In this document: positions 1,224-6,657 of the stretch, in pieces
Position numbering within the stretch: the first letter of the stretch is position 1
How the letters are laid out: every line of letters begins with the position of its first letter
Origin: Escherichia coli
Lineage (GTDB): Bacteria; Pseudomonadota; Gammaproteobacteria; Enterobacterales; Enterobacteriaceae
Reading direction: 5' to 3' (one strand)
DNA length: 7,079 bases
Assembly: GCF_003334305.1 (NCBI RefSeq)
Contig: NZ_QOWS01000048.1
Notes under the pieces: model-generated
Told to the model about the DNA's origin: nothing
Databases searched by the model: none
What the model saw: the letters and a program-made list of their open reading frames with translations, nothing else
Translations under genes and position numbers: made by a program

Positions 1224-2522
1224 CTAAATAATCATTGGCGCAATCACAAAGCCTAATGCCACTCCAGCAATAATTCCCCCCAACCCAGGCAGCATAAATG
1301 GATGATTCAGCACATATTTGCCTACACGAGTTGTGCCGGTAGTATCAAATTCCATGGCAGCCAGTGATGTTGGATACGTTGGCAGTACAAATACTCCGGT
1401 GACGGCCACATAGGACGCCAGAATTGCCCAGGTGGGCACGTCAAGCGCGACGGCAAGCGGGATAATTAACGGCGTGGTCGCACCTTGCGAGTAGAGCAGC
1501 GCGCAAGTGCCAAAAAGAACCAGCGCCAACAACATCGGATACGCCTGCAAAATATCACCAGCAATATCTTTAATCTCAGTTAAATGCGCATCAATAAAAG
1601 TGGTGCCTAAGGTTACAATGCCGAGAATTACCGCCAGCGAACTCATCCCCGCACGGAATGTGGAGGTGAGAATAATGGCATCGGTCGCCGTCTTACACAG
1701 CATCACCATCAGGCAGGCGGCAGAGAGCATACAGATAATAATGATATCGCGTGTTTCCATCGGTTTACCGATATCAAAACCCGGACGCAGTTGGGGGAAG
1801 GCAGCAAGAATAACAATAGCGACCGTCGCCAGCAGGAACAATCCGACGGAGAGCGTCGCACCTGGCTTGATGCTGCTATTATTCTCGTATTTTTGCACCA
1901 GTCCTTTTTGCAGGCGCTCAAGGTAGACCTCGTCATCCTGCAACTCACATCCCTGTCGGGAAGCAATAAAAGCGGCGACCATCGCGGCAGCAAAAGAGGT
2001 GGGAAGACATACCGACATCACTTGAATAAAACTGACACCGTTTACCTCCATAATAGTGAGCATAGCCGCCATTGCGGCGCTGATCGGCGAACCGGAAATC
2101 GCAACCTGCGAAGCGACAACCGAACCGGCAAGCGTGCGGGAAGGACGGATACCGGACTCTTTCGCCACTTCAGCAATCACCGGCAGCGTGGAAAAAACAA
2201 TAAACCCAGTACCGGCCATAATGGTCATAGACCAGGTGATAATCGGCGCGATTATGTTGATATATTTCGGGTTACGCCGCATAAAATTACCAGCGACGCG
2301 TACCAGATAATCCATTCCGCCTGCGGCCTGTAAGGCTGAGGCCGCCACAACAACGGTCATAATAATCAGGATCACGTCGACTGGCGGCGACCCCATAGGC
2401 AGACCAAATCCCAGAGTCAGAATGGCAAGCCCAAGCCCGCCACATAAACCAATACCGATTCCCCCCTGGCGAATACCAAAAAATATTGCACCAAGTACTA
2501 CGATAATTTCCAGCCAAACCAT
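1224..2522 (-). CDS. Anaerobic C4-dicarboxylate transporter, DcuA/DcuB family (432 aa)
   Basis: The 432-aa product aligns along its whole length with E. coli DcuA as I recall it (N-terminus MVWLEIIVVLGAIFFGIRQGGIGIG... versus DcuA MLVVELIIVLLAIFLGARLGGIGIG...; RRNPKYI, TLPVIAEVAKE, LPTYPT, GTTRVGKYVLNHPF motifs). Strongly hydrophobic throughout. GGAG Shine-Dalgarno 7-8 nt upstream of the ATG at 2522. Confidence 0.9.
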   Translation of the reverse strand: MVWLEIIVVLGAIFFGIRQGGIGIGLCGGLGLAILTLGFGLPMGSPPVDVILIIMTVVVAASALQAAGGMDYLVRVAGNFMRRNPKYINIIAPIITWSMTIMAGTGFIVFSTLPVIAEVAKESGIRPSRTLAGSVVASQVAISGSPISAAMAAMLTIMEVNGVSFIQVMSVCLPTSFAAAMVAAFIASRQGCELQDDEVYLERLQKGLVQKYENNSSIKPGATLSVGLFLLATVAIVILAAFPQLRPGFDIGKPMETRDIIIICMLSAACLMVMLCKTATDAIILTSTFRAGMSSLAVILGIVTLGTTFIDAHLTEIKDIAGDILQAYPMLLALVLFGTCALLYSQGATTPLIIPLAVALDVPTWAILASYVAVTGVFVLPTYPTSLAAMEFDTTGTTRVGKYVLNHPFMLPGLGGIIAGVALGFVIAPMII

Positions 2523-2587: not shown

Positions 2588-3307
2588 TTATTGGGTTAAA
2601 AGATAATGTTTACCGACACGATTTTCGTACCATTTTATTCCGGCACGAACGAGTGACGCCGTTGAGTCAATATAGCGGGAAGGCTGCTCTTTAACGGCTT
2701 GCGCCAGAATAACCGGAATTTCTGTACAACCAAGAACAAGGATTTCTGCACCGCGAGAAAATAATATTTCAGCCTGCTCATTCATCAACTTTTGTGCGTG
2801 CGCTATATTGCCAGCTTTCAAGGAATAAATACTTTCCATCACTTTTTTCTGACCGTCGGCATCGGGGCTGACACAGGTAAATCCCAGCGACTCAATTCCT
2901 TTTTGGTATAAACCCATATATAGCGTGGCATTGGTGGCTAACAAGCCAATTCGGGTTTTACCACAGGCGCGAACTTCATTGATCGTAGTTTCTACGATAC
3001 TTAATATATCAATATGACAAGCATCTTTTAATTCTTTGAACCAGTAATGCGCGGTATTACAGGGAATAACAATACATTCTGCCCCGGCATCTTCCAGCTT
3101 ATGCATATAATCACGCATAACGGGTAATGGTGAACGCCCATGATGCATTAATGCATCGGTACGGTCAGGAATATCCGGGATCGAAGAAATAATTAAAGGA
3201 ATATGTTCCTGATCACATTGTGCAGCGGTAAAAGTTACAAATTTATTAAACAGGTCGACGGTAGCTGCCGGCCCCATTCCACCGAGTACACCAATTAAAC
3301 CTTTCAC
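2588..3307 (-). CDS. Asp/Glu racemase-family enzyme, aspartate-racemase-like (239 aa; GTG start)
   Basis: Signature motifs of PLP-independent two-cysteine amino-acid racemases: GVLGGMGP near the N-terminus, IVIPCNTAHYW (first catalytic Cys) and LVLGCTEIPV (second catalytic Cys). Start codon is GTG at 3305-3307 with a GAGG Shine-Dalgarno ~10 nt upstream; an in-frame stop lies 4 codons further upstream. Only 65 bp separate it from the downstream Dcu gene on the same strand, with no terminator seen, so the two are probably co-transcribed. Confidence 0.85.
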   Translation of the reverse strand: MKGLIGVLGGMGPAATVDLFNKFVTFTAAQCDQEHIPLIISSIPDIPDRTDALMHHGRSPLPVMRDYMHKLEDAGAECIVIPCNTAHYWFKELKDACHIDILSIVETTINEVRACGKTRIGLLATNATLYMGLYQKGIESLGFTCVSPDADGQKKVMESIYSLKAGNIAHAQKLMNEQAEILFSRGAEILVLGCTEIPVILAQAVKEQPSRYIDSTASLVRAGIKWYENRVGKHYLLTQ

Positions 3308-3651: not shown

Positions 3652-4596
3652 ATGGTAATGAAGAATATCGAGACAAAATGGTTATACGATTTCCTGACAC
3701 TGGAAGCCTGTCGCCATTTTTCTCAGGCGGCAAAAGAGCGTAATCTTTCGCAACCCGCATTCAGCCGACGAATTAAGGCGCTGGAGGCAGCGATCGGCGT
3801 TGTTTTATTCGATCGCACGACCACCCCTTTACAATTAACCGAAGAGGGCAAGCTCTTTCATTCCCAGACTCGCAGCTTATTACAGCAGCTTGAATGCAAT
3901 TTGGGGGAGTTAAACGGCCAGAGTTTACTCGGCGTTCCCAACATTAAAATTGCAGCCGCGCACTCACTATCCCTGAGCGTATTACCCAAACTGGTGCATT
4001 CACTTACCGCCTATGGCGGAGAATTTGTCTATCATGTTGAAGCCATTGATGTTGTCCAGGCCGTAAATACGTTACGCGAAGGCAAGAGTGACTTTATTAT
4101 TTCGTTTCGCGATGAAGATCTTATGCAATCGCCTTTTTGCTGCCTGAAACTGTTTGAATCTGAGTTGTACCCGGTATGTGCCGCCGACGCACAGGGGCAC
4201 CCTGTATTCGATATCACTCAGCCCCAGGTTCCTTTGCTCAACTATACCGCCACATCTTATATGGGCAGGTTGGTCAATCGTCATCTGGCAGAGGTTGGAG
4301 GTATTACCGGGCGCACGATATTTATCTCTTCGATGAGCGAGTTATTAAAGAATATGGCGCTCAACGGATACGGCATTGCCTGGTTACCGATCTGGTCGAT
4401 CGTCGATGAACTACAGACCAAACGTCTGATATGCCTTGATGCTGCTAAATTGACAGTCCCCATTCAGGCTTATATTTACCGAATGAACACCCGACTGAAT
4501 AGAACCGCCGAGAACCTCTGGCGTATTTTACAGGAACATATGCCAGACGATTTAATCCAGCAGATATCAATGGAAGAGCCAGCATGCCGCAATTGA
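3652..4596 (+). CDS. LysR-family transcriptional regulator (LTTR), YjiE/HypT-like; true start more likely the ATG at 3658
   Basis: N-terminal winged-HTH region (...LEACRHFSQAAKERNLSQPAFSRRIKALEAAIGVVLFDR...) followed by a LysR-type substrate-binding domain. The N-terminus resembles what I recall of E. coli YjiE (...NIETKWLYDFLTLE...). An AGGTG Shine-Dalgarno at 3645-3649 sits 8 nt before the ATG at 3658 but only 2 nt before the ATG at 3652. Confidence 0.9.
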   Translation: MVMKNIETKWLYDFLTLEACRHFSQAAKERNLSQPAFSRRIKALEAAIGVVLFDRTTTPLQLTEEGKLFHSQTRSLLQQLECNLGELNGQSLLGVPNIKIAAAHSLSLSVLPKLVHSLTAYGGEFVYHVEAIDVVQAVNTLREGKSDFIISFRDEDLMQSPFCCLKLFESELYPVCAADAQGHPVFDITQPQVPLLNYTATSYMGRLVNRHLAEVGGITGRTIFISSMSELLKNMALNGYGIAWLPIWSIVDELQTKRLICLDAAKLTVPIQAYIYRMNTRLNRTAENLWRILQEHMPDDLIQQISMEEPACRN

Positions 4597-4713: not shown

Positions 4714-5173
4714 TTACTTACGGTCCGTAAACGGGCTGCCCGGACAGGGAATCGATAACTGCTCTCCCATTTTATCCTCTTCAAGCTGGTGCTTTATGTA
4801 ATCCTGTATCTTCGCCGTGTTCTTACCCACTGTATCGACGTAGTCCCCCCTGCACCAGAACTCCCTGTTCCTGTATTTGAATTTCAAATCACCAAACTGC
4901 TCGTAAAGCATCAGACTGCTTTTCCCTTTCAGATATCCCATAAACCCGGATACGCTCATTTTGGGCGGGATCTCCACAAGCATATGGATATGATCTGCAC
5001 AGCATTCAGCTTCCAGAATCCGTACGCTTTTCCACTCACACAGCTTTCTCAAAATACTGCCTGTTGCTCTACGCTTCTCTCTGTAGAACACCTGTCTTCG
5101 GTATTTTGGCGCAAAAAACTATGTGATATTTACAGTTCCATCGGGTGTGCGCTAAGCTCTTTTCGTTCCCCAT
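4714..5173 (-). pseudogene. tnpA: IS200 transposase tnpA (Y1/HuH), apparently frameshifted
   Basis: ATG at 5173 (minus) opens MGNEKSLAHTRWNCKYHIVF, then the frame changes at a T6 run (plus A6 at 5113-5118). The remainder ...FAPKYRRQVFYREKRRATGSILRKLCEWKSVRILEAECCADHIHMLVEIPPKMS...FWCRGDYVDTVGKNTAKIQDYIKHQLEEDKMGEQLSIPCPGSPFTDRK* is in another frame (six-frame ORF 4714-5091). The intact IS200 TnpA as I recall it reads through ...KYHIVFAPKYRRQ..., so this copy appears to carry one extra T. Confidence 0.75.
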
Positions 5174-5179
5174 TGGGAC

Positions 5180-5249
5180 CCCCTTTTGATTTCTTGTTTG
5201 ACACTTGCAGTTGCCAGACCGCAAGGTGTTTTAACAAATCAAAAGGGGT
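5180..5249 (-). promoter_or_regulatory. IS200 5'UTR stem-loop that sequesters the tnpA ribosome-binding site
   Basis: Perfect 13-bp inverted repeat: CCCCUUUUGAUUU pairs with AAAUCAAAAGGGG across a ~44-nt loop on the minus-strand transcript. The 3' arm contains the AAGGGGG Shine-Dalgarno just upstream of the AUG at 5173. Matches the described IS200 nt 69-138 structure. Confidence 0.7.
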
Positions 5250-5283
5250 TTTAATAACTGGCTCAAAGCTGAAAGCTTTCCGG

Positions 5284-5306
5284 AACCCCCAGCCTAGCTG
5301 GGAGTT
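5284..5306 (-). promoter_or_regulatory. IS200 left-end hairpin (described as blocking read-in transcription)
   Basis: Minus-strand AACTCCCAGC-TAG-GCTGGGGGTT forms a 10-bp stem (one G.U pair) with a 3-nt loop, 23 nt in total, at the position expected for the IS200 nt 12-34 hairpin. Confidence 0.55.
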
Positions 5307-5316
5307 TTCTGTGCAC

Positions 5317-5344
5317 AAAAAAACCCTGTAAAAAACTTACAGGG
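5317..5344 (-). terminator. Perfect palindrome plus T7 tract (minus-strand intrinsic terminator) abutting the IS200 left end
   Basis: Minus strand reads CCCTGTAA-GTTTT-TTACAGGG followed by TTTTTTT (plus 5324-5344 stem-loop, plus 5317-5323 A7): an 8-bp perfect stem with a U-tract. Confidence 0.55.
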
Positions 5345-5942
5345 GTATAAGGCTTAGCCTAACTTGCGTCTGTTGCATGGTGCCGGGTGCCTCCCGGTGA
5401 ATTCAGTCGGTGTCACTGAACCCGCGTAGGCTTCGCTCATAACATAATAAATGCTATGTACACCAGTCGCCCCACCGCACAGGGGGATTCACCACACGGC
5501 GCACTTTTTAACAAATATCCCTCCGGCCAGACAATAATAAACATAATGAATTGTGATCTTCTTAACAGTTTTAAAGTGTTACAGATAACATGCCAAGTAA
5601 TTGCTTGTTTTTTCATCAATAGGAAGACCACACCAACAACCCCAGCTATCAGCCAGAACCGACATTATCCGGCTGATAAAATCTACCATCACTCCAACAC
5701 CAATCACCGCCTGTGCCAGATCGCGTTTCTCAAACTTTTTAATCTCTGTTGCCACTCTGCGGGTTTTCTTTTTGAATTTTGAAAATACCAAATATCGTGA
5801 CGTTTCTTTGGGGGATGAGCTATCAAGCGGGAACGATCTGCCTACAGAGAAAGTCAGCCAGACCACTCTGCAAATTATCCCCGAAAGGCTCTGTGGCTGA
5901 TATGCGCCGGGCATGGCGCAATGGGCCAGTGGCAGTGTGTGA

Positions 5943-6015
5943 TGGTGGCCCTTACTGGATTTGAACCAGCGACCAAGCGATTATGAGTCCTCTTACCACT
6001 GAGCTAAAGGGTTGG
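5943..6015 (-). tRNA. Degenerate tRNA(CAU)-like sequence resembling tRNA-Ile2 (ileX/ileY-like); probable pseudogene or attachment-site relic
   Basis: Minus strand reads AACCCTTTAGCTCAGTGGTAAGAGGACTCATAATCGCTTGGTCGCTGGTTCAAATCCAGTAAGGGCCACCA. The T-arm, variable loop, CTCATAA anticodon loop (CAT) and 3' acceptor-CCA are recognisable and resemble E. coli tRNA-Ile2 as I recall it. However ~5 nt are missing at the D-stem/anticodon-stem junction, and the first two acceptor-stem positions (AA instead of GG) cannot pair with the 3' strand. Confidence 0.55.
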
Positions 6016-6279
6016 AGAACGCAATATCACCTGTCTTATATGATTACACCCAGAATTTCCCGGACTGTCTTGTCAAAACATTCAGTCTCCAATTCCCACC
6101 AATAGCAAGACGGTCACTATGACAGCATCTCCGGAATGAGCTCAGGGCACGGGGGTTTACCGAGGTTACTTTTCCAACGAAGTTTCTCAAACGCAGGCGT
6201 GACAGATAACATTCAAACTTAGGATCTCAGTTGCTATCTTTTCCCATGTCTTACGGATTAATGTCATCGGTTGCATACA

Positions 6280-6657
6280 AATCGCTACAAGCTGCATCAA
6301 GGCACATGCTTCATATGTACAGTACACCAAGATGGATAGGTGTTTCACCTAATCCTAGCTCATTTCAGGCAGGCTCAACAGGCTGCAGCCCGCATGTTTA
6401 AGGGCGCAGGTTATCAGCAGGTTATAAGCTGACCGGATACATTCCGGCAAAGAAAAACCTTGCAGCGATGAAAGCCGTTTCGGTAATGCAATGACGATAA
6501 AGCTGTCCTGTATATATGTGCTTCGCCTCAAACGCTTGCCGTTTTGGTATTGTGCACATGCCGTCTGAACGATGTGGAGCCAGAAAAATGGATGCGTTAT
6601 GTCATTGAGCATATCTAGGACTGGCCGGCAAACCGGGTACACGATCTGTTGCTCTAA
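6280..6657 (+). pseudogene. IS66-family transposase (TnpC) C-terminal remnant, degraded
   Basis: Frame-1 translation 6487-6657 gives ...AVLVLCTCRLNDVEPEKWMRYVIEHI*DWPANRVHDLLL*, which resembles the conserved IS66 TnpC C-terminus (...LIGTCKLNDVDPE.YLRHVL..IADWPVNRVSELLPW) as I recall it, but with an in-frame TAG at 6616-6618. Upstream similarity (e.g. CIKAHA at ~6290-6307, where CWAHARRK would be expected) is weak and needs frame changes. Possible element terminus GCGCTTAC at 6756-6763 or 6704-6711 (reverse complement GTAAGCG...). Confidence 0.45.

Follow-up and report, generated by a model that had tools for sequence, protein, structure and literature searches.

The tRNAs encoded by lambdoid and Stx-converting phages are thought to decode rare codons (AUA for Ile, AGA and AGG for Arg) in late gene or toxin expression. 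In the Stx phages the genes form a cluster, ileZ-argN-argO, and we take this naming to be that of the 933W genome paper as well. Throughout, the three names are used as they stand in the GenBank annotations of 933W (AF125520), Stx2a_F723 (AP012533) and others. The gene order in Stx2a_F723 is Q, ileZ, argN, argO, stx2AB and STnc100. The late region of the lambdoid phage Evi holds three tRNA genes, the first with the anticodon CAT, in the order Q, three tRNAs, a 143-aa ORF, a small ORF, STnc100 and S, and a prophage of FORC_044 has the order tRNA-Ile, tRNA-Arg, TerB-family ORF, DUF3927 ORF, esterase and holin. STnc100 is a prophage-associated sRNA whose presence has been taken to indicate prophage origin (bioRxiv 10.64898/2026.05.13.724894). 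Rfam places it downstream of the tRNA cluster and ahead of the holin gene in each of the three phages examined for it; it follows stx2B in Stx2a_F723, the tRNA genes in PhiR49_2 and the DUF3927-type ORF in Evi. In the FORC_044 prophage, which otherwise looks intact, a 100-nt unannotated gap lies between tRNA-Ile and tRNA-Arg (L012 3281-3382) and begins with argN-type 5′ sequence. Judging from these letters, the gap may hold another decayed, or an uncalled, middle tRNA of such a cluster.

Sequences derived from tRNA genes are found within acquired DNA for a different reason as well, namely as attachment-site duplications, which integrases produce as pairs of short 3′-end copies at the ends of an element. 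The SRL island of Shigella, which is inserted at serX, is flanked there by 14-bp repeats and carries fec and AspR-DcuA, is one example (PMC7545054). The tRNA gene ileX is a known insertion site for islands in E. coli (table in PMC7545054).

In the present study we analyzed a window of 7,079 nucleotides, by which we mean the whole stretch of DNA given above. It belongs to the E. coli chromosome and is 100% identical to strain 2021CK-01784, among others. The window contains a decayed gene of the tRNA-Ile2(CAU) type that is unable to form a cloverleaf. We conclude that this relic is very probably the first gene, of the ileZ type, of a two- or three-gene tRNA cluster that lay between Q and the lysis genes of a lambdoid or Stx phage, and that it survives in about 800 bp of phage debris within an SRL-like island at serX. 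The relic and its neighbors are listed below in the direction of the minus strand.

6131..6391, minus strand: fragment of a P2-family replication endonuclease gene (gpA), 74-77% nucleotide identity to Peduoviridae gpA, best E = 1e-49
6021..6112, minus strand: methylase-ORF remnant, homologous to the 3′ portion of a small DNA methylase ORF that in Stx2 phages immediately precedes ileZ, 74.2% identity, E = 1e-6
5943..6013, minus strand: tRNA-Ile2(CAU)/ileZ-type pseudogene (the relic), 71 nt including CCA, from Rfam RF00005 and alignments
5921..5942, minus strand: spacer TCACACA and a 5′ stub of about 15-16 nt of the second cluster tRNA, 17/23 against Stx phages
5702..5920, minus strand: post-tRNA leader and the first ~90 nt of a TerB-family ORF, from local alignment
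5648..5692, minus strand: internal piece of a small DUF3927 ORF, 82% to L012:4107-4151 (FORC_044 prophage) and L002:6897-6941 (Evi)
5313..5527, minus strand: STnc100, Rfam RF02076, 136.4 bits, full model length
4714..5306, minus strand: IS200, with the STnc490 5′ leader at 5306-5183 (Rfam RF01405, 143 bits) and a frameshifted tnpA at 5173-4714 (IS200/IS605 tnpA pseudogene according to PGAP)

Detection of tRNAs relied on ARAGORN and on Infernal with RF00005. Over the whole window ARAGORN made no tRNA call. The Rfam tRNA model matched the relic from end to end, at model positions 1-71 (30.7 bits, E = 0.0022), with a score that clears the gathering score of 29 only marginally and stands against 72.5 bits for intact ileZ. 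Read on the minus strand from 6013 to 5943, the sequence is AACCCTTTAGCTCAGTGGTAAGAG^GACTCATAATCGCTTGGTCGCTGGTTCAAATCCAGTAAGGGCCACCA. The Rfam alignment places a 5-nt gap on the 5′ strand of the anticodon stem, and acceptor positions 1 and 2 are AA where GG is expected, leaving both unpaired. The relic forms 5/7 pairs in the acceptor arm, 3/4 in the D arm, 2/5 in the anticodon arm and 5/5 in the T arm, compared with 7/7, 4/4, 4-5/5 and 5/5, respectively, in its intact relatives. Its minimum free energy of -17.4 kcal/mol lies at the level of shuffled sequence (z = -0.48) and belongs to a structure other than the cloverleaf, while an intact ileZ-type gene and ileY reach -33.5 and -34.1 kcal/mol, with z of about -4 each. 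The CAU anticodon loop, the T arm, the 3′ acceptor strand and the CCA are all kept, and the relic is identical to real tRNA-Ile2 genes at 64-66 of 71 positions, far above chance.

A preliminary description of this DNA, made from the letters, had already recognized the tRNA ancestry from the T arm, the CAU loop and the 3′ acceptor strand with CCA, the inability to fold as a cloverleaf, the loss of about 5 nt and the two mismatches in the 5′ acceptor strand, and each of these points is borne out by the results above. The same is true of its remark that the sequence is too long for a direct repeat left by an integrase, as all 71 model positions are matched. It had given ARAGORN and a comparison with intact ileX and ileY as means of checking this; the program was silent, and identities to the copies in strain 746 and DH1 are 64/71 and 66/71, respectively. 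Its coordinates of 5943-6015 are right at the start and run 2 nt too far at the end, which is 6013, and it had left the minus strand unstated. RefSeq has no annotation at the relic, and its neighbors there are a partial DUF3927 pseudogene and a frameshifted 'hypothetical' fragment; most genomes likewise leave the relic unannotated. A plus-strand match to the archaeal snoRNA sR42 (Rfam, 17.9 bits, E = 0.88) was dismissed as a chance match.

The relic was aligned with the first tRNA gene of Evi (CAT), ileZ of Stx2a_F723, the first tRNA gene of PhiR49_2 and two chromosomal comparators, ileY from DH1 (beside ypjC) and ileX from strain 746 (beside mug). Identity over the tRNA body was 65/71 to each of the three phage genes, 66/71 to ileY and 64/71 to ileX, and does not separate phage from chromosomal ancestry. 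The variant states of the relic are GGTAAGAGC...CGCTTGG...CCAGTAAGGG. Its variable region, CGCTTGG, is of the chromosomal type seen in ileX and ileY and does not occur in the phage ileZ genes sampled, from every one of which the relic differs at this region and at two further positions. Its T loop, TTCAAAT, is in the phage state, with ileX and ileY carrying G where the relic and the phages have A. In the phage and E. coli genome collections, intact copies come no closer to the relic than about 93%. A version of the relic with its lesion hypothetically repaired was likewise searched against every complete E. coli genome and revealed no closer intact relative, its best full-length matches being the relic loci themselves. 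A global MAFFT alignment had equated the relic with the third tRNA of Evi (Arg-TCT); targeted alignments and local BLAST overturned this assignment.

The sequence next to the tRNA body is more telling. After CCA the relic reads TCACACACTGCCACTGGCCCAT and the Stx phage reads TCACATACCGCCATTAGCTCAT, in which the 7-nt ileZ-argN spacer leads into the start of argN. This 3′ flank is identical at 17/23 positions to both Stx2a_F723 and PhiR49_2, compared with 6/23 for ileY and 3/23 for ileX, and the probability of at least 17/23 matches by chance is about 1e-6. Since it is the flanks that discriminate, and not the tRNA body, we assign the relic a phage origin. The junction sequences at the locus are the CCA of the relic followed by TCACACACTGCCACTGG, and CCCAT followed by TGCGCCATGCC; homology downstream of the relic stops at the junction of CAT with TGCGCC.

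When the relic and the DNA around it were compared with phage genomes, two separate signals emerged, one from P2-family gpA and one from the lambdoid phage Evi. Evi matches the locus from the relic through the DUF3927 region, a stretch that in the phage has the antiterminator gene Q on one side and the lysis genes on the other. Upstream of the relic, 6112-6021 matches 134 phage records, all of them Stx-converting phages or phages recorded from E. coli, and those of the listed records with an annotation at the matched stretch give it as a small DNA methylase ORF. In PV189404 the methylase match (55010-55102) is followed by the ileZ match (55139-55227), co-linear and on the same strand. This upstream match is modest (74%, E = 1e-6), and the defining upstream neighbor, Q, is absent. 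Downstream, 5920-5702 is 84% identical to the FORC_044 prophage (L012:3501-3714) and 79% identical to Evi (L002:6285-6504). The TerB-family ORF is inactivated by a change of its start codon from ATG to ATA at 5795-5793 and by a 7-nt insertion. Between the TerB block and the DUF3927 block about 390 bp of the intact phages are absent, and PGAP annotates 5678-5791 of the window as a partial DUF3927 pseudogene.

The co-linear blocks of the lambdoid fragment end with STnc100. The core of this sRNA (5494-5373) is 93-100% identical to phages, and it keeps its terminator hairpin (5344-5324) and T run. The IS200 is inserted directly after this terminator and closes the phage-derived block. The order within the fragment is therefore, as read from the alignments, methylase remnant, tRNA 1 (the relic), spacer, tRNA 2 stub, a deletion of ~200 bp, leader, TerB 5′ end, a deletion of ~390 bp, DUF3927 piece and STnc100; Q and the holin gene are both absent from it. 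Together, the ~800 bp from 6112 to 5313 are a co-linear, heavily deleted piece of a lambdoid late region, probably from the interval between Q and the holin gene.

The locus thus shares with the ileZ-argN-argO cluster of Stx and other lambdoid phages a CAU Ile2-type tRNA in first place, the 7-nt spacer, the start of the second tRNA and, upstream, the methylase-ORF remnant. With the non-Stx members of this group it has in common the TerB-family and DUF3927 ORFs and STnc100 downstream. In contrast to the phage cluster, the relic is without 4-5 nt of the anticodon arm and has two acceptor mismatches, the second tRNA is reduced to a stub of ~16 nt and the third is deleted; in contrast to an intact phage, the locus is without Q, the lysis genes and everything else of the phage.

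Upstream, the gpA fragment abuts the lambdoid fragment, so that debris of two unrelated phage types lies side by side, beside a deoK-type sugar operon. In the PGAP annotation, 6120-6310 is a partial hypothetical protein with a frameshift. The island of S1-ESP-03-A (L004 12600-12816, 12940-13109, 13817-14155) has two STnc100 copies; one has a group II intron D1-D4 fragment after it, the other an IS200 directly after it, and hairpin-seeking mobile elements may repeatedly land at the STnc100 terminator. In strain N385 (L011 1916-4001) an IS100 follows the relic closely on its downstream side, and ISEcp1-blaCMY-2 and IS4 come a few kb later; the relic locus is still gathering insertions. A match in N385 that starts exactly at the 3′ edge of the relic was considered as a variant junction and rejected, as it merely reflects the IS100 inserted beside the relic.

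The island that hosts the relic extends over ~71 kb, from the tRNA-Ser gene serX (beside ghrA) to a tyrosine integrase gene (beside phoH). In the coordinates of the record, serX is at 1,025,447, the integrase at 1,096,425-1,097,627 and the relic at ~1,068,200, that is, ~43 kb and ~28 kb from the two ends. Its cargo comprises fecIRABCDE, a pair of genes for a racemase and a C4-dicarboxylate transporter, CP4-type genes, many IS copies and a deoK-type sugar operon, in agreement with the preliminary view that the surrounding DNA is IS-rich and horizontally acquired. Because it occupies serX and carries fec and the racemase/transporter pair, we consider this island a probable relative of the Shigella SRL island. 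The likeness extends to the P4-type integrase and the CP4-like genes, and the difference lies in what the E. coli island adds, the deoK-type sugar operon and decarboxylase/antiporter genes. No resistance cluster is annotated in the island stretches examined.

Two further features of the island were noted. In 2021CK-01784 (L005 20448-20535, L006 8426-9628) the island integrase is at the end away from serX, and the serX-proximal end has CbtA/CbeA and YeeR-S-T genes, which are usually distal in CP4-type islands; this placement suggests an inversion or a composite of two elements. Within the window lie genes for the C4-dicarboxylate transporter (1224-2522, minus strand), the racemase (annotated cuyB; 2588-3307, minus strand) and a LysR regulator (annotated hypT; 3652-4596, plus strand). 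This trio may be the counterpart of the AspR-DcuA D-aspartate module of the Shigella SRL island, which it resembles, and the RefSeq names may be misleading.

Among 5,426 complete E. coli genomes the relic locus was found in 190, nearly all of which, including the O104:H4 outbreak strains and NCTC86, have the allele of the window. A second allele, with a 4-nt gap at the same site and with flanks that are ~4% divergent, occurs in five genomes.

L004 12118-12189 and L013 418-489, also in strains 550, S1-SRB-02-B and OZ547086: 72-nt allele, annotated by PGAP as tRNA-Ile

At the lesion the window allele reads GAG-GAC, the second allele GAACGAC and intact phages GAGCGAGCGAC, and at the 5′ end the second allele has AGCCC where the window allele has AACCC. 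Both alleles are without tRNA 2 and tRNA 3, and because this loss is common to them the decay predates their split. With 72 nt the second allele scores 41.1 bits in Rfam, and ARAGORN reports it as tRNA-Met, placing the anticodon at position 30. No more than 3/5 pairs remain in its anticodon stem, and the ancestral lesion is retained; on account of this stem we regard the calls as very probable false positives, and the 72-nt allele is probably a pseudogene miscalled as a tRNA. Between the two lineages 2 of 71 positions are substituted in the relic and 40 of 959 in the flanks (Fisher p = 1.0), and there is no sign of purifying selection on the relic.

From these alleles and the surviving blocks we infer how the cluster decayed and in what order. 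Loss of 4-5 nt has taken away the 5′ strand of the anticodon stem. This deletion probably occurred by slippage on the tandem GAGC-GAGC of GAGCGAGCGAC, yielding GAGCGAC, since GAG-GAC and GAACGAC are each one step away from GAGCGAC. Two substitutions have opened the end of the acceptor stem, and a deletion of ~200 bp has taken the remainder of tRNA 2 and the whole of tRNA 3. The TerB-family and DUF3927 ORFs downstream have been wrecked too, and Q has been lost along with its promoter region. The outcome would be a gene that lacks a present function.

In order for the relic to be an attachment-site scar, as the preliminary description had proposed, it would need to be an incomplete copy of ileX or ileY, left where one end of an element had entered that tRNA gene by site-specific recombination, and it would then mark an island boundary. 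The body identity of 64-66/71 to ileX and ileY, the chromosomal type of the variable region, the IS-rich island around it and the use of ileX as an island insertion site are all in keeping with such a scar, and like the duplication of SRL at serX the relic is tRNA-derived sequence within acquired DNA. However, attachment-site duplications are short, paired and terminal, whereas the relic is full-length, with its complete 5′ half (acceptor strand and D arm), unpaired, internal and set between phage cargo. Its 3′ flank matches ileX and ileY at chance level, in contrast to the phage ileZ-argN interval, and both flanks are lambdoid late-region sequence. The preliminary description had suggested looking beyond the window for an integrase gene and a matching direct repeat. 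The nearest integrase is ~28 kb away, at the far end of an island that is attached at serX, and the 3′ end of the relic (23-mer, at most 3 mismatches) has a single occurrence in L001 and none in L005 or L006, 125 kb in total. We therefore abandon the scar as extremely unlikely. An island boundary is likewise not to be placed here, at a site ~43 and ~28 kb inside an island of ~71 kb; at most, the relic marks a site within a mosaic island at which different modules meet (P2-type debris, lambdoid debris and an IS200). Similarly, a decayed copy of chromosomal ileX or ileY that entered the island by recombination or transposition, without any phage, is very unlikely. Both chromosomal genes are of the same tRNA type as the relic, tRNA-Ile2 with a lysidine-modified CAU anticodon, and have an identical anticodon loop, and such a copy would account for ileY being marginally the closest in body identity (66/71) and for CGCTTGG, which ileX and ileY have in common and the sampled phage ileZ genes do not. 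Yet ileX and ileY fold into a full cloverleaf, score as tRNAs and have unrelated flanks, while the flanks of the relic resemble neither chromosomal locus and are co-linear with phage late regions over ~800 bp, including the second tRNA stub and STnc100, and the A in the T loop is the phage state. The preliminary description had named a duplicate tRNA gene and a tRNA carried on a mobile element as alternatives; the flanks speak against the former and for the latter.

It is also conceivable that the relic or its 72-nt allele specifies a functional, non-canonical RNA, for example an unusual tRNA, a decoy that occupies an enzyme of tRNA modification or processing, or a processing signal in the STnc100 transcript. 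In its favor, 190 complete genomes retain the locus, among them those of successful lineages (O104:H4, for example), the T arm and the 3′ acceptor strand with CCA are intact, the relic scores above the Rfam gathering threshold, and the neighboring STnc100 is full-length with its terminator. Moreover, the allele with the 4-nt gap is called a tRNA by both ARAGORN and PGAP and has 41.1 bits in Rfam. In contrast, the anticodon helix is absent, fold stability is no higher than in shuffled sequence, and a crude consensus scan of the minus strand near the relic found no promoter-like site. The relic has been substituted at the same rate as the flanking junk, and the lesion and the acceptor end are precisely where its two alleles part, unlike what selection on structure would give. 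Linkage to the island accounts for the retention. We thus hold a functional RNA to be highly improbable. A specific form of this proposal would have the relic, especially the 72-nt allele, still co-transcribed with STnc100, with its T arm and acceptor-CCA serving as a handle for RNase P and tRNA processing or as a decoy for a tRNA-binding enzyme, and to this we give scarcely any credence. If it were true, the co-transcribed relic and STnc100 would represent a domesticated phage tRNA fragment rather than junk.

Based on our results here, the relic of an ileZ-type phage gene is an ordinary pseudogene, part of the dead prophage cargo that is common in E. coli islands. Its kind is already well known, and decaying prophage fragments are routine in such islands. 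Its significance lies in how comparable sequences are read. Sequences resembling tRNAs in islands and near prophage sRNAs are often treated as integration remnants, and a recent study reads tRNA-like matches near prophage sRNAs as remnants of prophage insertion sites (bioRxiv 10.64898/2026.05.13.724894). At the present locus the flanks decide the matter, and not the tRNA body. Given the arrangement of Q, tRNA genes and STnc100 here and in the Stx phages, many tRNA-like matches near prophage sRNAs may instead be phage cargo tRNA genes. For the five RefSeq genomes in which the allele with the 4-nt gap is annotated as tRNA-Ile, the tRNA count is one too high, as this allele is very probably a pseudogene. 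Finally, the fragment provides a handy marker for one family of SRL-like, deoK-bearing islands, found in 190 of 5,426 genomes including the O104:H4 outbreak lineage and NCTC86.
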